UHGV virus genome: UHGV-0394570
From: a virus
Direction: 5' to 3' (one strand)
DNA length: 13,411 nucleotides
Position numbers and translations under genes: made by a program. The notes under the pieces were generated by a model, which did no database searches, was not told where the DNA came from, and worked only from the letters and a program-made list of their open reading frames with translations. Below are positions 265 through 9,011 of this stretch, one piece after another; position 1 is the stretch's first letter, and every line of letters starts with the position of its first letter.

Positions 265-2253
265 TTACGCAGATGCCGGGCTGTTCACTTCCACTGTCAG
301 CGTGTCAATCCACGTTTCATACGTGGCTGTATTCGACGCATCCGTCAGAATAAGCGTGTTTTCCTGTCCTTCATATTTAAAACAGGACAGCTGTGTGGTC
401 GGGGCTTTTACCGTATCCACGTATGGCGTCACCGTGTTCTGGCCTCCTCCCGGATATACCAGCTCCAGTGTGTGCCATTCACTGTTCAGCGTACCGTATC
501 CCGCAACACGCGTCTGCGCTGCACCATTGTGCATCAGACTGAGTTTGCCATCCGTTTCTGTCTGCAGATAGAACGCCACCAGGAACGGATGGGTACCGTC
601 CGCCTTATTGGCAAATTCCACACCTTCCGGGATATCGTTTTCCTTCAGCTGCAGATACATCGCCAGGGCTATCTGTTTTCCGTTCGCACTCCCTGGTATT
701 TTAAAGCGACAGGTGATTTTGCCGCCGTTTTTCAGCAGTTCCGCCGCATTTGCCACTTCACGGGTCAGCTTCAGGTTCATTGCTTCATCCTGGCTCAGTT
801 TCAGCGCCCGCCCGGAAGTACTGCTTTCATCCTGTACCACTTCCGCCTTACCTTCGCTCAGCGTCCAGCCCTGTTCGGCATAAGCACCTTCACTTTCTGC
901 ACCGCTGTACAGGGTGGTAACGTTACTCTTCGGTTTTGCCGGTTCCGGATAGTTTTCCGTTATATCTCCACCGGCAAGGAACGGTCCGTTACGCCCTGCA
1001 TGGGTCAGGATTGCGGTGGCTATACGGTCCGGCAGGATGCCGCGACGGGCCCAGGAACTGAAATGCATGGCGCGTGTCGGGTTCGTCCAGTTACCCGCCG
1101 TGCGTGATGCTGCACCGTAATAATTTGCTTCGGGCACATCCGGATCTTCTGCCGGGTTATTGGTCGGAACATTCGCACCGGTCTCATCCTTCATGAGTTC
1201 GACAAAATGCACATTCGGCTCACTGTTTTTACGGTACGCGCCATAAACCAGGCTGTATTGTGTCGGGTACTGCTGCTTCCACCAGAAGGTGGTATCACCA
1301 CATACCCACGGTACGCGGGCCGCATCACCACCCAGACACTGACCGGCATATGCCGCCAGATCGGTACGGAACTGCTTCACCATGGCCGTAAACAACGCCG
1401 GATGCCCCGTGTAACCTGAAGACATACAGTCACCCTCGCCCTGCATCCAGTACACGGCCAGCAGGACGTTTTTCGCGTTCTTTTCAAGGGCGGCCTTCGT
1501 GCGGGCAATTAAATCCATGTACAACGGTTTACCCACACCCCAGCGGGAGGAATCCGCTGTTGCCCCCGTCTCCGGGTTATAGGTACCCTCATCACGATCG
1601 GTAAACGCAGAGCCGCCACGACTGCACGGCACAATCAGGATCCCCGCATTAACCGGAATATAGGGCAGAAGACGTTTGGCAATATGCAGGCCGTGCCCGA
1701 CACAACCATACTGACCACGGGAAAGGTCCGCGTTGGGGTGATTTTTGGCACTCATGTCTTCAACGTCATGGAGACAGTGATCGGCCTCAATCACATCGTT
1801 GTATTTACAGGCAGCACCACCCGGTCGGACCACACTGCGGCGGGCCAGCTGCTTAATGCGTGGATCGGGACGGTCGTAGCTGTCAGGCAGGGGCATACCT
1901 TCGCCGGTTGCCATATTGTTGGACTGACCTGCGGTGACCAGCACATAGTAATATTCAGGCTCACGGGTCGGCTCGCTCACCACCGCACCGCCTTCCTCCG
2001 GTGTCACCACGACAGGCGTGGTGACATCCCCTTCTGCGGCAATCGCCTGCATCAGGGTATAAGGGGTAATGGCGACCGGGCTGCCAAACGGCTGCCAGCC
2101 TTCCTTCAGTTTTTGNNNNNNNNNNNNNNNNNNNNNNNNNNNNNNNNNNNNNNNNNNNNNNNNNNNNNNNNNNNNNNNNNNNNNNNNNNNNNNNNNNNNN
2201 NNNNNNNNNNNNNNNATCAACTTGCTGAATTGTGAGGTATTTAAAAATTTCAC
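265..2253 (-). CDS. nanS-p: NanS-p-like prophage sialate O-acetylesterase (SASA/SGNH-type esterase), interrupted by assembly gap
   Basis: Long minus-strand ORF with esterase signature TAGQSNNMATGEG (GQSN serine motif) and a C-terminal beta-rich domain. Lies downstream of the tRNA triad as in Stx-phage late regions. The 5' end is uncertain: track start is GTG at 2253 and codons 13-46 fall in the N run. Confidence 0.75.
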   Translation of the reverse strand: MKFLNTSQFSKLXXXXXXXXXXXXXXXXXXXXXXXXXXXXXXXXXXQKLKEGWQPFGSPVAITPYTLMQAIAAEGDVTTPVVVTPEEGGAVVSEPTREPEYYYVLVTAGQSNNMATGEGMPLPDSYDRPDPRIKQLARRSVVRPGGAACKYNDVIEADHCLHDVEDMSAKNHPNADLSRGQYGCVGHGLHIAKRLLPYIPVNAGILIVPCSRGGSAFTDRDEGTYNPETGATADSSRWGVGKPLYMDLIARTKAALEKNAKNVLLAVYWMQGEGDCMSSGYTGHPALFTAMVKQFRTDLAAYAGQCLGGDAARVPWVCGDTTFWWKQQYPTQYSLVYGAYRKNSEPNVHFVELMKDETGANVPTNNPAEDPDVPEANYYGAASRTAGNWTNPTRAMHFSSWARRGILPDRIATAILTHAGRNGPFLAGGDITENYPEPAKPKSNVTTLYSGAESEGAYAEQGWTLSEGKAEVVQDESSTSGRALKLSQDEAMNLKLTREVANAAELLKNGGKITCRFKIPGSANGKQIALAMYLQLKENDIPEGVEFANKADGTHPFLVAFYLQTETDGKLSLMHNGAAQTRVAGYGTLNSEWHTLELVYPGGGQNTVTPYVDTVKAPTTQLSCFKYEGQENTLILTDASNTATYETWIDTLTVEVNSPASA
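2116..2215. other. Assembly gap (100 N)
   Basis: Run of exactly 100 n characters. True length and reading-frame continuity across it are unknown. Confidence 0.99.
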
Positions 2254-2432
2254 CAGCTAACTGATACCAGGCTAACCGTCTGGTGTTTTCTTTTTCAGCA
2301 ACGGGAAAACAACAACCACAACACCAGCCACCAGCATCCCATCTGCCAGCACTGACATTATCCGGCTGCTGAAGTCCACCATCACGACAAGAAACAGCAG
2401 AACTACCACAATGGCCAGGCGCAGTTTTACCG

Positions 2433-2864
2433 TCACAGGTGATTCTCCAGACGAAGGCCCAGAACACCGGCTATCTCTTCCAGCACCTTGCGCTCTTCCG
2501 GCTCAATTTCGCCATCTGATTCCGCAATGGCCACCGCCACATCCAGTACATCTTCCGCTTCTCGCATATCGTGTTTCACGTCCTCGATCTCACGTAACGC
2601 TGCACGACGACCTATTTTGAAGTTGGTGTCCAGCTGACCAGTGATGGTTGCGCTAATCGCATTAATTTCTGACGTAAACGCTGACAATGCAGGTTGGTTA
2701 CGCAGTACCTGTTCGATCTTCGCTTTCTCGGAAGCCTCACACTCACCATCTGCATAAGCCACCAGGTATGCAGCGTTAATCACCGCCTGGGCCAGATCGC
2801 GTTTTTCAAACTTTTTAATTTCCGCTGCCGCTCTGCGGGTTTTCTTTTTGAAGATTCCAAACAT
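2433..2864 (-). CDS. TerB-like (tellurite-resistance TerB domain) protein, 143 aa
   Basis: ATG at 2864-2862 with SD AAAGGAACG upstream; the track start at 2936 is a non-ATG extension. Two ADG...E motifs typical of TerB domains (AYADGECEASEKAKI and AESDGEIEPEERKVLEEIA). Confidence 0.65.
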   Translation of the reverse strand: MFGIFKKKTRRAAAEIKKFEKRDLAQAVINAAYLVAYADGECEASEKAKIEQVLRNQPALSAFTSEINAISATITGQLDTNFKIGRRAALREIEDVKHDMREAEDVLDVAVAIAESDGEIEPEERKVLEEIAGVLGLRLENHL

Positions 2865-2994
2865 CGTGACGTTCCTTTGGGTGGGTGAGCCAACGCCCGG
2901 GAGCGATCTGCCCACAGAGAAAGTCACACTGACCACTCCGTAAGCTCACCCCCGAAAGGCTCTGTGGTTGATATGCGCCGGGCGTGGCGCGGAT

Positions 2995-3019
2995 ACAAAA
3001 AAGGCCGCCAATAGCGACC
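2995..3019 (-). terminator. Intrinsic terminator after the 68-aa ORF
   Basis: Minus-strand RNA GGUCGC-UAUU-GGCGGCC (one G-U pair) followed by UUUUUUGUAUCC. Core shares 15 identical nt (GATACAAAAAAGGCC, 2992-3006) with the terminator at 3588-3613. Confidence 0.55.
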
Positions 3020-3053
3020 TCAGTTACGGGATTATTCTGGGGTTAAACGACTG

Positions 3054-3260
3054 TTACTCCCAGACAAAATCATCACTTCCTGTTCGATGCGAGCCATAGT
3101 GAACCTCGTACTTATCTCCCATCTTTCTTGCTTCCGTTTCTGCGTCTTCCTCTGTCGCAAAAACCCCAACAAGATGCCAGGGCGAGCTTCTTACCACAGC
3201 CCAACCTTTAACCCATCCTTTGTTGTCCTTATCTTCCATTAACACTTCAGAAACAAACAT
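3054..3260 (-). CDS. Hypothetical small acidic protein, 68 aa
   Basis: ATG at 3260 preceded by AAGGAG with 6-nt spacing; stop TAA 3054-3056. Translation MFVSEVLMEDKDNKGWVKGWAVVRSSPWHLVGVFATEEDAETEARKMGDKYEVHYGSHRTGSDDFVWE. No family recognised. Confidence 0.5.
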   Translation of the reverse strand: MFVSEVLMEDKDNKGWVKGWAVVRSSPWHLVGVFATEEDAETEARKMGDKYEVHYGSHRTGSDDFVWE

Positions 3261-3312
3261 ATTTATCTCCTTGTGGGTACCCGGAGATATTTTATGATTG
3301 CTCCCGGTCAGA

Positions 3313-3537
3313 TCAATAAAGTGGCTTCAATTTTGCCTTAATGATCAAATCAGGGTGATTGACGGAATCGTACACCACCTCAATATTTTCATCCGTGGCG
3401 TCGATAAGATATTCTTTTACATAAGGACCTGTTGATTTTCCATGAAATACATCTTCAACAAGTACACTCTCCCCCTGAACAACACGAAAACTAACTTCTG
3501 TTTCGAACGGACCAATCGTCACCATCAGTTTTTTCAC
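3313..3537 (-). CDS. Hypothetical small acidic protein, 74 aa (GTG start) or 70 aa (ATG at 3525)
   Basis: AGGAGG 4 nt upstream of GTG at 3537; in-frame ATG at 3525. Translation MKKLMVTIGPFETEVSFRVVQGESVLVEDVFHGKSTGPYVKEYLIDATDENIEVVYDSVNHPDLIIKAKLKPLY. No family recognised. Confidence 0.5.
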   Translation of the reverse strand: MKKLMVTIGPFETEVSFRVVQGESVLVEDVFHGKSTGPYVKEYLIDATDENIEVVYDSVNHPDLIIKAKLKPLY

Positions 3538-3587
3538 ATAGCCTCCTGATAAGCACTCGATTTATTAGTTAATGGTGTAACGCAGAT

Positions 3588-3613
3588 ACAAAAAAGGCCC
3601 GCAAAAGCGAGCC
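3588..3613 (-). terminator. Intrinsic terminator directly downstream of the tRNA cluster
   Basis: Minus-strand RNA GGCUCGC-UUUU-GCGGGCC (7-bp stem, one G-U) followed by UUUUUUGUAUCUGCG. Near-repeat of the 2995-3019 terminator. Confidence 0.6.
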
Positions 3614-3626
3614 AGGTAAATAAATA

Positions 3627-3703
3627 TGGCGCGTTGTACTGGATTCGAACCAGTGACCGATTGCTTAGAAGGCAATTGCTCTGTCCGGCTGAGCTAACAA
3701 CGC
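3627..3703 (-). tRNA. argO: tRNA-Arg (anticodon UCU, reads AGA/AGG)
   Basis: Minus-strand sequence GCGTTGTTAGCTCAGCCGGACAGAGCAATTGCCTTCTAAGCAATCGGTCACTGGTTCGAATCCAGTACAACGCGCCA: 7-bp acceptor stem, anticodon loop CTTCTAA, T-loop TTCGAAT, encoded CCA. Third gene of an ileZ-argN-argO-like triad. Confidence 0.85.
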
Positions 3704-3716
3704 AGGGTACGGATAA

Positions 3717-3793
3717 TGGACCGCCATCGAGGACTCGAACCCCGCGCAACCAGCTTCGAAGGCTGGCGCTCTATCCCGATGAGCTAATGGCGG
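3717..3793 (-). tRNA. argN: tRNA-Arg-like (anticodon read as UCG); unusual C1-G72 and U73
   Basis: Minus-strand sequence CCGCCATTAGCTCATCGGGATAGAGCGCCAGCCTTCGAAGCTGGTTGCGCGGGGTTCGAGTCCTCGATGGCGGTCCA: perfect 5-bp anticodon stem CCAGC/GCTGG, loop CTTCGAA, T-loop TTCGAGT, encoded CCA. Isotype by anticodon only. Confidence 0.7.
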
Positions 3794-3800
3794 TATGTGA

Positions 3801-3876
3801 TGGTGGCCCTTGCTGGATTTGAACCAGCGACCTGGCGATTATGAGTCGCTCGCTCTCACCACTGAGCTAAAGGGCC
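3801..3876 (-). tRNA. ileZ: tRNA with CAU anticodon; closely resembles E. coli tRNA-Ile2 (lysidine, reads AUA)
   Basis: Minus-strand sequence GGCCCTTTAGCTCAGTGGTGAGAGCGAGCGACTCATAATCGCCAGGTCGCTGGTTCAAATCCAGCAAGGGCCACCA: anticodon loop CTCATAA, encoded CCA. Strong resemblance to recalled ileX-type tRNA-Ile2 rather than elongator or initiator Met. Confidence 0.85.
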
Positions 3877-7801: not shown

Positions 7802-7880
7802 CGGCTTCTCCGGTGACGCAGCAGGTGCCAGTTGTTCAGGCTGACGGCGCGAATTGTAAGGCAATACGCCGGAATGTACA

Positions 7881-7906
7881 AACAGAAAACCCGTCAGTAA
7901 GACGGG
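7881..7906 (-). terminator. Intrinsic terminator after the YgiW/BOF gene
   Basis: Minus-strand RNA CCCGUC-UUACU-GACGGG followed by UUUUCUGUUUGU, 16 nt after the stop at 7922. Confidence 0.6.
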
Positions 7907-7921
7907 GATAACCAGAACCGG

Positions 7922-8269
7922 TTACTTTAATAATTTCAGCGTTTTTACATCCAGTTCAACACTGTTCAGGTCTTTATCAAGTTCACCCTCGATTATTACC
8001 TTATCTTCCGGAGACACATTCTGCCCGGCCCATACACTTTCATCGATATCCGTGACAATGGTTCCGCTACTGTCGCGAAACTCATAACGATCATCACCCA
8101 ATTTTTTAACGATGTGCCCTTCAAGGATAACCCATGCCTCGTCCTTCTGTTCTTTTGCCTGCACTACTGTTGTTGAACGCTCTGCTTCAGACCCCAGAAA
8201 ACCTCCCTGTTGTGCAAAAACGCCAAAAGACACGCAGGAAAAAAGGGCTGCGATTAATACTTTTTTCAT
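7922..8269 (-). CDS. YgiW/YdeI (BOF, bacterial OB-fold) family periplasmic protein, 115 aa with signal peptide
   Basis: ATG at 8269 with SD AGAGGA; track start 8350 is an upstream extension. Signal peptide MKKVLIAALFSCVSFGVFAQQ followed by an OB-fold-like body. Low-GC gene with its own terminator. Confidence 0.75.
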   Translation of the reverse strand: MKKVLIAALFSCVSFGVFAQQGGFLGSEAERSTTVVQAKEQKDEAWVILEGHIVKKLGDDRYEFRDSSGTIVTDIDESVWAGQNVSPEDKVIIEGELDKDLNSVELDVKTLKLLK

Positions 8270-8386
8270 TATCGTCCTCTTCAAGAAATTAACATGAACA
8301 CTTGCATTGCAGCATATAAAATGCGGGTGCGTTGAGGATGCCTGACACATCAGAGGTGGCGAGGGATTTCTCCCTCGCCTGGTCTC

Positions 8387-8542
8387 TTACTTCTCAGATT
8401 CGTAGTCTACGAAGACAGCGACCTCCGTCTGGCCGGTTCGGATTCGTACCTCGCAGAGGTCTTTCCTCGTTACCAGTGCCGTCACTATGACGGTTAAACA
8501 GATGACAATCAGGGCGATTAACATCGCCTTTTGCTGCTTCAT
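8387..8542 (-). CDS. hok: Hok/Gef-family type I toxin, 51 aa
   Basis: MKQQKAMLIALIVICLTVIVTALVTRKDLCEVRIRTGQTEVAVFVDYESEK: N-terminal TM helix and conserved Cys pattern, near-identical to recalled HokD/RelF. The track ORF (8599) is an in-frame 19-codon upstream extension from another ATG. Confidence 0.85.
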   Translation of the reverse strand: MKQQKAMLIALIVICLTVIVTALVTRKDLCEVRIRTGQTEVAVFVDYESEK

Positions 8543-8787
8543 AGCCTGCTTCTCCTTGCCTTTCGGCACGTAAGAGGCTAACCTACATGTGCAAAGCATG
8601 AAATTGGCCTCAGATTAATGTTAAGCGTCTTGCCGGACGCGTAATGTTAACTGGGGCTTTTCTCTGTCTGCCTTACGGTGGCATGCCCGAGGCAGACAGC
8701 CTCAAGCACCCGCAGCAATTCTACTTAACTCTCGCTTTACCGCAAACCGTTTTTACCCGATATGGGAATCCCCATATCGCAATGAAA

Positions 8788-8892
8788 TCAGTTTCCCATC
8801 CGATCCATCAAAAACACAACCAGGCAGTAAACGCCCACAACAGAAATAACGGCCAGCGCGCCTTCCATTGCCAGTGAAAGATCATCCGACAT
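8788..8892 (-). CDS. Unannotated hydrophobic micro-ORF, 34 aa (single predicted TM)
   Basis: ATG at 8892-8890 preceded by AAAGGAGGG (4-5 nt spacing); stop TGA 8788-8790. Translation MSDDLSLAMEGALAVISVVGVYCLVVFLMDRMGN. Below the ORF-track length cutoff. Confidence 0.4.
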   Translation of the reverse strand: MSDDLSLAMEGALAVISVVGVYCLVVFLMDRMGN

Positions 8893-8927: not shown

Positions 8928-9011
8928 TTACTCCCACCGACAAATAACATATACTAAAAAAGCGATAGCCATAGCAACGCCTGTAATTGCAAAGGCTTCA
9001 GGCCAGTTCAT
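8928..9011 (-). CDS. Unannotated hydrophobic micro-ORF, 27 aa, translationally coupled to the upstream 101-aa ORF
   Basis: ATG at 9011-9009 overlaps the TGA stop (9008-9010) of the upstream ORF (ATGA overlap); stop TAA 8928-8930. Translation MNWPEAFAITGVAMAIAFLVYVICRWE. Confidence 0.4.
   Translation of the reverse strand: MNWPEAFAITGVAMAIAFLVYVICRWE

Follow-up and report, generated by a model that had tools for sequence, protein, structure and literature searches.

Type I toxin-antitoxin systems have their textbook example in hok/sok, and the closest known systems to the locus described here are the hokW-mokW-sokW cassettes of the Stx2 phages 933W and Sp5 (VT2-Sakai). Annotation of the hokW-sokW type in phage 933W dates from 1999, and its experimental characterisation in Sp5 from 2021 (PMC8621323). 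In Sp5, HokW is located in the inner membrane and causes growth arrest (Takada et al. 2021, PMC8621323), and the sokW RNA counteracts HokW with an activity that is partly dependent on RNase III and Hfq (PMC8621323). The antitoxin protection was lost when a promoter-less sokW construct was used, and Sok was gone after prophage induction (PMC8621323). The reported role of the Sp5 cassette is a faster phage release at induction, whereas that of the hok/mok/sok locus (parB) of plasmid R1 is plasmid maintenance, and Hok of R1 is more distant, with only about 44% protein identity (PMC8621323).

Here, we annotated a copy of this system in the virus genome UHGV-0394570, and the whole stretch of 13,411 nucleotides that was analysed is referred to as the window. 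Judging from its sequence, there is little doubt that a lambdoid, Stx-phage-like prophage carries here, as a moron in its nin region, an intact type I hok/mok/sok toxin-antitoxin cassette, and that this cassette belongs to the hokW-sokW (HokD-like) type. The cassette is of an already known kind and is an ordinary prophage copy, and the outcome of the analysis is a precise annotation of each regulatory element in this copy, including the role of a hairpin after hok and a predicted TadA site.

Results

The cassette and its genomic context

The annotation of phage 933W (AF125520) lists mokW, hokW and a sokW antisense RNA in the homologous region; this DNA is 91% identical to the cassette of the window, and the two can be aligned without gaps from the hok promoter to the fbi element. 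The 551-bp locus matches 102 phage records and is matched by sequence in 4,728 of 5,426 complete E. coli genomes, with the best matches (98% identity) found in prophages of E. coli O121. The Rfam family RF01794 hits the minus (hok-sense) strand at 8711-8537 with 117.2 bits (gathering score 59, E = 1.1e-26), and the match spans model positions 1-157 of 157. This family is named 'sok', yet its model runs in the hok sense from the mRNA 5' end (GGGUGCUUGAGG) to the hok AUG, and it therefore describes the hok leader. For the comparative analysis, an alignment of 31 loci from 5 genera was used together with a wider set of about 40 homologous loci, which were drawn from Escherichia, Shigella, Kluyvera, Photorhabdus, Pantoea and Citrobacter.

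The surroundings on the minus strand correspond to the early-right and nin regions of a lambdoid prophage. The cassette is preceded, in this order, by genes for a YdaT-like protein, an HTH replication protein, a DnaC/IstB-like protein, DUF1627, DUF977 and small ORFs, and it is followed by YgiW/BOF, DUF968, RusA, a Q-like antiterminator, a DNA methylase, three tRNA genes, TerB and a NanS-p-like esterase; an stx gene is absent from the window. Homology to 933W is limited to one block (8755-7878, 88.8% over 885 bp), and its start at 8755 lies just upstream of the hok promoter hexamers. The shared module of about 880 bp thus comprises the hok/sok cassette and, as its passenger, the gene for a YgiW/BOF periplasmic OB-fold protein with an intrinsic terminator (7880-8269, minus strand; Pfam BOF, E = 2.9e-30, and terminator scan), in which the gene occupies 8269-7922 and the terminator stem at 7906-7890 is followed by a U-tract to 7880. 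The Sok promoter hexamers, the Sok hairpin and terminator, and the downstream YgiW/BOF gene with its terminator are common to the window and 933W. However, the module is inserted at different sites, namely between the replication genes and DUF968/RusA/Q of the nin region in the window, and beside attR on the int/PL strand in 933W.

The hok toxin and the mok reading frame

The hok toxin gene (8387-8542, minus strand) encodes the 51-aa peptide MKQQKAMLIALIVICLTVIVTALVTRKDLCEVRIRTGQTEVAVFVDYESEK. The preliminary description had assigned this ORF to the Hok family, and the assignment is well supported by the matches to Pfam HOK_GEF (PF01848; E = 9.8e-23, 79.9 bits with a cut-off of 22) and to PHROG 251 'MokW-like host killing' (E = 1e-32). 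The protein has the same sequence as HokW of 933W (100% identity), and by analogy with this identical protein and with the sokW allele of Sp5, the peptide would be expected to be toxic and to be neutralised by its own Sok. HokD (relF, of the Qin prophage of E. coli K-12) and HokC (gef) belong to the same Hok subfamily with 92% and about 80% protein identity, respectively, and their loci share with the window the terminal hairpin, fbi and an editable Tyr codon in a UACGAA context. The C-terminus reads VDYESEK in the window and TAYEPEE in HokD.

The hok SD (GGAG) is located at 8555-8552 on the minus strand. Upstream, the ATG at 8599 opens a frame of 70 codons (8387-8599, minus strand) that overlaps hok in frame, and the 70-aa form that had been noted earlier is the canonical mok frame, as it is also annotated for mokW of 933W. 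The mok SD (GAGG, 8608-8611, minus strand) is located 8 nt upstream of the mok ATG and is invariant in the 31 loci. In most of these loci the mok ATG is exactly 57 nt upstream and in frame, while in five of them (L012, L013, L020, L024 and L025) it is out of frame at 58 nt. Compared with R1, mok of the window is in frame with hok, and the cassette is borne by a prophage instead of a plasmid.

The putative hok promoter and the leader

A putative hok/mok promoter was read from the sequence at 8718-8746 on the minus strand. Its -10 hexamer is TAGAAT (8723-8718), and the -35 hexamer may be TTGCGG (8745-8740, 16-nt spacer) or TTTGCG (8746-8741, 17-nt spacer). The -35 is poor, matching the consensus at 3 of 6 positions, which counts against a functional reading. 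When the locus was scanned for generic consensus promoters with a 4-of-6 rule, the hok and Sok promoters were both missed, since both are below this rule, and the scan is thus uninformative for the locus. The hok mRNA probably starts near 8711, where the alignment to RF01794 places model position 1 (with an uncertainty of about 2-3 nt), so that the hok 5' UTR would be about 169 nt long, its last 57 nt being mok coding sequence. The leader of roughly 245 nt that had been proposed corresponds to the whole intergenic gap; the 76 nt by which this gap exceeds the 5' UTR contain the putative hok promoter together with an unrelated 9-bp palindrome (8758-8779).

The 5' end of the mRNA is formed by the tac element (GGGUGCUUGAGG, 8700-8711, minus strand), which is invariant or covarying in the 31 loci. 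The same element is also the 5' arm of a local hairpin (8709-8683; -18.4 kcal/mol, z = -4.9), which we take to be the metastable hairpin of nascent hok transcripts known from the Gerdes-laboratory literature. The ucb element (anti-SD, AGCCCC, 8653-8658, minus strand) was assigned from its partners in the full-length (FL) and truncated (Tr) folds and from the Rfam consensus structure, and it is predicted to bind the mok SD in the closed RNA and tac in the open one. In a constrained fold, the partner of the mok SD in the open form is dcb (8577-8574, minus strand).

The predicted Sok antisense RNA and its promoter

An antisense regulator had been predicted on the plus strand opposite the leader, and alignment to the annotated 71-nt sokW of 933W places a Sok RNA of about 71 nt at 8591-8661 on that strand. 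Its promoter (8556-8584, plus strand), which lies in a stretch identical in 933W, consists of the -35 hexamer TTGCCT (8556-8561), a 17-nt spacer and the -10 hexamer TAACCT (8579-8584), and Sok starts 7 nt after TAACCT. In the Sp5 study, the primers YO-421/YO-422 change AGGTTAG to CCGGCTCG on the hok strand (PMC8621323). This change hits exactly the TAACCT/AGGTTA hexamer, and the stretch is invariant between the window and 933W. Because the Sp5 mutation falls on the conserved TAACCT, the pair of hexamers that the preliminary description had regarded as a weak candidate is the real Sok promoter by homology; its -35 hexamer needs to be moved from 8557-8562 to 8556-8561. We therefore regard TTGCCT-17-TAACCT as the true Sok promoter of the window on this homology. 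The complement of its -35 (GGCAAG) is invariant in the 31 loci, and R1 has its Sok promoter, TTGCGC-17-TATCCT, at the same position. Another promoter-like site on the plus strand (8295-8322) was rejected, as such sites occur at chance level (0.7 expected per region) and this one is unconserved in 933W.

Sok is predicted to begin with a single-stranded 5' tail that can base-pair with the region of the mok start; a long hairpin follows, and then a U-tract to about 8661. The RNA folds with -31.6 kcal/mol (z = -5.3). The hairpin has a 16-nt extension over the Rfam consensus.

Predicted pairing between the ends of the hok mRNA

The fold-back inhibitory element, fbi (CCUCAACGCACCC, 8325-8337, minus strand), is complementary to tac with one bulged C; it is located 20 nt downstream of the hairpin that follows hok, and is itself followed by the U-rich UUUUAUAU (8321-8314). 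The two elements contain a 9-nt perfect inverted repeat, 375 nt apart. Long-range pairing of the 5' and 3' ends had been expected from other hok loci, and folding of the full hok transcript had been suggested as a check. The minimum free energy (MFE) fold of 8711-8318 indeed closes the 5' tac (8711-8700) on the 3' fbi (8337-8325), with -169.6 kcal/mol and z = -8.4, and in this full-length fold the mok SD (GAGG, 8611-8608) is paired with ucb (8656-8653).

The alignment of the 31 loci from 5 genera points in the same direction. Over the whole structure, 82.3% of the cells are paired compared with 36-44% when the partners are slid, and changes on both sides are found in 36 pairs compared with 14-20 in the slid controls. 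These include a U-A to C-G change in tac/fbi, where 18 loci have U-A and 11 have C-G at pair 4/403 (tac position 4). As judged from these aligned sequences, compensatory change supports the tac/fbi pairing. The paired cells amount to 89.5% in tac/fbi and to 96.4% in the helix of the terminal hairpin, but a 1-nt bulge and unequal stem lengths among subfamilies blur column-wise counts of this kind in the hairpin and in the distal half of tac/fbi. Many cells scored as 'other' are register artefacts, and for this reason folds of the individual sequences were used for the hairpin.

When the open tac-ucb stem is enforced, the predicted energy rises by 12.4 kcal/mol for the full-length RNA but by only 0.2 kcal/mol for an RNA that ends just past the hairpin, and in the constrained open form of the truncated RNA the mok SD switches from ucb to dcb (8577-8574). 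The leader of the window agrees with the open-form consensus of Rfam. In the truncated RNA the open form is, by constrained folding, iso-energetic with the MFE and not uniquely favoured, and when folded without constraints, the truncated RNA and the isolated 5' domain adopt the local 5' hairpin (8709-8683) at their MFE and not the open tac-ucb form. These modelled energetics of full-length and truncated RNA match the R1 model summarised in PMC9841398.

A terminator scan found no canonical terminator between fbi and the BOF gene in the window. In 933W, too, fbi has no canonical terminator behind it, and only GCAUUUUAUAU follows fbi in both. In contrast, complete homologues of the hokD type carry a canonical terminator (ACCCGC-TTCG-GCGGGTTTTT) directly behind fbi.

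The terminal hairpin after hok

A 9-bp GC-rich hairpin with a GAAA loop (8358-8379, minus strand) is the homologue of the terminal stem-loop of the truncated R1 hok mRNA. In the mRNA sense it reads GGCGAGGGA-GAAA-UCCCUCGCC, with a perfect 9-bp stem at 8379-8358 and no T-tract directly 3' of it in the sequence, exactly as had been described; the gap from the stop codon, which had been given as 8 nt, is 7 nt (GAGACCA, 8386-8380). With its flanks, the hairpin folds with -21.8 kcal/mol (z = -4.9), and none of 200 shuffled sequences folds as well. An equivalent GC-rich hairpin of 7-9 bp is found at the same offset after the stop in all of the about 40 homologous loci, usually with a GNRA-like tetraloop, which shows that the hairpin is no product of chance. 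Compared with 933W, the hairpin of the window shows one compensatory pair change, as the fifth stem pair is A-U in the window and G-C in 933W with a G-U intermediate in L006, and the loop is GAAA instead of GUAA. A compensated change is also found in the tac stem.

In R1, the 3' UTR substitutions that cause loss of function disrupt this stem in 19 of 22 cases, and the truncated mRNA is then lost (Le Rhun et al., PMC9841398). By analogy with R1, the hairpin at 8358-8379 is the protective 3' stem-loop of the processed, translatable hok mRNA, which would act as a barrier to 3' exonucleases. The missing T-tract follows from this role as the 3'-end barrier of a processed mRNA, with the role of a terminator excluded. 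The earlier placement of the hairpin at the 3' end of the locus would thus be right for the mRNA after exonucleolytic processing, but in the primary transcript the hairpin is internal, with fbi further downstream.

A predicted TadA editing site

Folds and covariation also point to a small hairpin within hok (8395-8409, minus strand). Its 4-bp stem carries the 7-nt loop CUACGAA (8405-8399), which displays the Tyr47 codon UAC (8404-8402), and A8403 is predicted to be a TadA A-to-I editing site that would change Tyr to Cys. UACGAA is invariant in the 31 loci, and the stem pairs covary (CG in 15 and UA in 14 loci for one pair, GC in 20 and AU in 8 for another). The loop letters are those of the anticodon loop of E. 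coli tRNA-Arg(ACG). In TadA substrates, the edited A lies within a UACG motif in a hairpin loop that is similar to this anticodon loop. Editing at the corresponding Tyr has been reported in hokC, hokD and hokE (PMC5630033).

Discussion

Every defining hok/sok element is, as far as its sequence can tell, intact and contiguous in the copy of the window. The architecture is that of plasmid R1, with a tac/fbi closure, a Sok promoter at the corresponding position, a terminal stem-loop for the truncated mRNA and a U-rich stretch behind fbi, and the mechanism proposed here is also that of R1, with ucb/dcb switching and the coupling of hok to mok as predicted steps. From homology we infer the transcript ends, the Sok expression and the toxicity of the cassette. 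The steps of the following mechanism were demonstrated for R1 hok/sok and partly for Sp5 hokW-sokW, and they are transferred to the window by homology and folding. The weak promoter (-10 at 8723-8718) would produce a stable hok mRNA from about 8711. In the full-length RNA, tac (8711-8700) would pair with fbi (8337-8325) and the mok SD (8611-8608) would be locked on ucb (8658-8653), and this closed RNA would allow neither translation nor binding of Sok. Slow trimming by 3'-to-5' exonucleases would remove fbi and halt at the GC-rich hairpin (8379-8358), which would become the protective 3' end. With fbi removed, tac would be free to pair with ucb, the mok start would be exposed, and translation of mok (from 8599) would be coupled to that of hok. 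The unstable Sok (8591-8661, promoter 8556-8584) would pair by its 5' tail with the mok start of the truncated mRNA, whereby translation of mok and hok would be blocked and the duplex cleaved. If the replenishment of Sok ends, Hok (51 aa) would enter the inner membrane and kill or lyse the cell.

Three other readings of the locus have to be weighed against this one. Chromosomal hok loci are often inactive (PMC5630033; bioRxiv 10.1101/2025.08.07.668861), and the locus could accordingly be a decayed remnant without function, comparable to hokD/relF of the Qin prophage in K-12, in which the upstream regulatory part is missing, or to hokA, hokC and hokE, which are interrupted by IS elements. Decay of this kind is visible among the homologues, in which relE sequence replaces the leader (L008 and L027), the hairpin is interrupted (L015) or tac is mutated (L007). 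However, the window differs from the two relBE-linked hokD copies, which are without the mok/sok/tac leader, in that it retains tac, fbi, ucb, dcb, both SDs, the mok frame and the Sok promoter in intact form. Its elements are contiguous and align free of indels to hokW-sokW, a type with experimentally shown function, its Hok is the same protein, and neither an IS nor a frameshift occurs in the locus, which makes decay highly improbable. It also appears improbable that the 70-aa in-frame Mok, as an N-terminally extended Hok, is itself the relevant toxin isoform and more than a device for translational coupling. The in-frame product does include the whole Hok sequence, and the in-frame 57-nt layout is kept across genera in most of the 31 loci; but the mok ATG is out of frame in the five loci named above, the 51-aa hokW ORF is toxic by itself (PMC8621323), and in R1 it is the translation of mok that counts and not the Mok product (PMC9841398).

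The last of these readings regards the 9-bp hairpin as a transcription terminator, or as the primary 3' end of the hok transcript, as the title of the preliminary description implies. Such a reading could be suggested by the strong GC-rich stem-loop 7 nt past the stop codon, and by the terminator scan, in which a canonical terminator is otherwise absent before the next gene. Against it, the hairpin is without a downstream U-tract, and the conserved fbi, which is needed in the transcript for the 5' pairing, is located 20 nt further downstream. The canonical terminator of the homologues sits after fbi and not at the hairpin, and the equivalent R1 stem is the 3' end of the processed and not of the primary mRNA (PMC9841398). 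We give hardly any credence to this reading, and continue to regard the hairpin as the protective end of a processed hok mRNA in an intact cassette.

The orientation of the cassette touches the question of how induction removes Sok, and comparison with the early operons suggests an answer. In the nin region of the window, the cassette shares its strand with the early rightward (O/P-to-Q) operon. In 933W and Sp5, where it is located beside attR on the int/PL strand, the cassette would sit, after excision and circularisation, downstream of the N-antiterminated PL transcript; the sib region of lambda is likewise located downstream of the PL transcript after circularisation. With either layout, antiterminated transcription of the early genes would run across the cassette in the hok sense; such read-through would occlude the convergent Sok promoter or collide with it, and would supply a surplus of Sok target. 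That prophage induction switches hok on by such transcriptional read-through is a tentative proposal, which we consider rather unlikely at present. If true, it would account for the RecA- and induction-dependent loss of sokW RNA and the appearance of HokW in Sp5.

In addition, the two phage copies differ in the part of Sok that would contact its target. The Sok 5' tail covers mok codons 2-4, where Mok reads MLCTC in the window and MLNTC in 933W, and about 8 of the first 19 nt of the tail differ from sokW. The tail is perfectly complementary to its own target, since Sok is encoded in cis. The tail is hypervariable, with three alleles among six otherwise near-identical loci, and these alleles could define specificity groups that do not cross-react among the up to ten copies per E. 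coli genome.

Predicted editing of hok and divergence of Sok

The hok gene (8387-8542, minus strand) contains a short hairpin within its coding sequence (8395-8409), and its loop holds the Tyr47 codon UAC with the predicted edited base A8403. The letters of the 7-nt loop, CUACGAA, are equal to those of the anticodon loop of E. coli tRNA-Arg(ACG), and the loop is closed by a 4-bp stem. Across the 31 aligned loci from 5 genera, the UACGAA stretch showed no variation, and the stem exhibited covariation within the coding sequence. TadA-mediated A-to-I editing, which changes Tyr to Cys, is known from hokC, hokD and hokE (PMC5630033), and the hairpin in our locus fits this modification. Among the hok genes of K-12, full loop identity to the tRNA has been reported for hokB only, and because the predicted site of the hokW type, A8403, has this full identity, it may be edited efficiently.

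The most divergent part of the whole cassette is the first 19-20 nt of the antisense RNA Sok. This 5' tail (8591-8612, plus strand) lies opposite mok codons 1-5, which are read from the minus strand. Compared with sokW of the Stx2 phage 933W, approximately 8 of 19 positions differ in the tail, and the following 52 nt are identical. Three alleles of the tail were found in six otherwise near-identical loci, one shared by the window and locus L003, one by 933W and L009, and one by L005 and L006. Up to 10 copies of the locus reside in a single genome. The tail alleles could represent specificity groups, by which copies residing together would avoid acting on one another.

Rfam RF01794, which is named 'sok antitoxin (CssrC)', matches 8537-8711 on the hok-sense strand, from the 5' end of the mRNA to the hok AUG, and this family therefore models the hok leader rather than the Sok RNA. 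If the Rfam match were used for annotation, 'sok' would be assigned to the incorrect strand, at 2.5 times its proper length.

Genomic setting of the cassette

The hok/sok cassette and the downstream YgiW/BOF gene with its terminator form one mobile module of approximately 880 bp (7878-8755 in the window, compared with 933W; 2501-3380 in L001). The module occupies different positions in the two phages: in the window it is located in the nin region on the strand of the PR operon, whereas in 933W it adjoins attR on the int/PL strand (AF125520 1-9000, L050). In all 12 related loci examined, which are not independent and in which ORFs were called crudely, the nearest ORF upstream of hok was on the same strand as hok.

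In hokD-type copies, a canonical terminator (ACCCGC-TTCG-GCGGGTTTTT) follows the fold-back inhibitory element fbi (8325-8337, minus strand), and it is absent in the window (8314-8324) and 933W (homologues compared, L005-L011 and L020). Since the first intrinsic terminator 3' of the hok promoter only follows the BOF gene (7906-7880), hok may be co-transcribed with this gene, or the helix between fbi and tac, the 5' end of the mRNA (8700-8711), may act with the U-rich stretch as the terminator. A promoter-like site on the plus strand (8295-8322; TGAACA, 16 nt, TAAAAT; 9 of 12 matches) would read into the hok 3' UTR in the antisense direction. This site is probably non-functional, because one occurrence is about what chance would give (0.7 expected) and its conservation in 933W is poor.

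Elsewhere in the window (265-3876, minus strand), three tRNA genes with CAT, TCG and TCT anticodons lie downstream of a Q-like gene and a DNA methylase gene, and they are followed by a TerB-family gene and then by a gene for a 662-aa NanS-p-like sialate esterase. No stx genes lie between these genes, and the layout is that of a Stx-phage-like prophage that lacks the toxin. The TerB gene carries a pseudogene annotation in the closest O121 prophage.

Between the hok promoter and a small upstream ORF, we also observed a perfect 9-bp palindrome, CGATATGGG-GATT-CCCATATCG (8758-8779), which folds with -14 kcal/mol on either strand, has a U-tract on neither, and is found in the O121 prophage and missing from 933W. 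Immediately upstream of hok are two very small hydrophobic ORFs on the minus strand (8788-8892 and 8928-9011), neither of which gave an informative family match. One encodes 34 aa, MSDDLSLAMEGALAVISVVGVYCLVVFLMDRMGN; it is preceded by a good SD sequence, and its annotation in the O121 prophage is hypothetical. The other encodes 27 aa, MNWPEAFAITGVAMAIAFLVYVICRWE. In 933W, ORF L0139, located immediately upstream of hokW, finishes with a similar C-terminus (…VYSICRWR).
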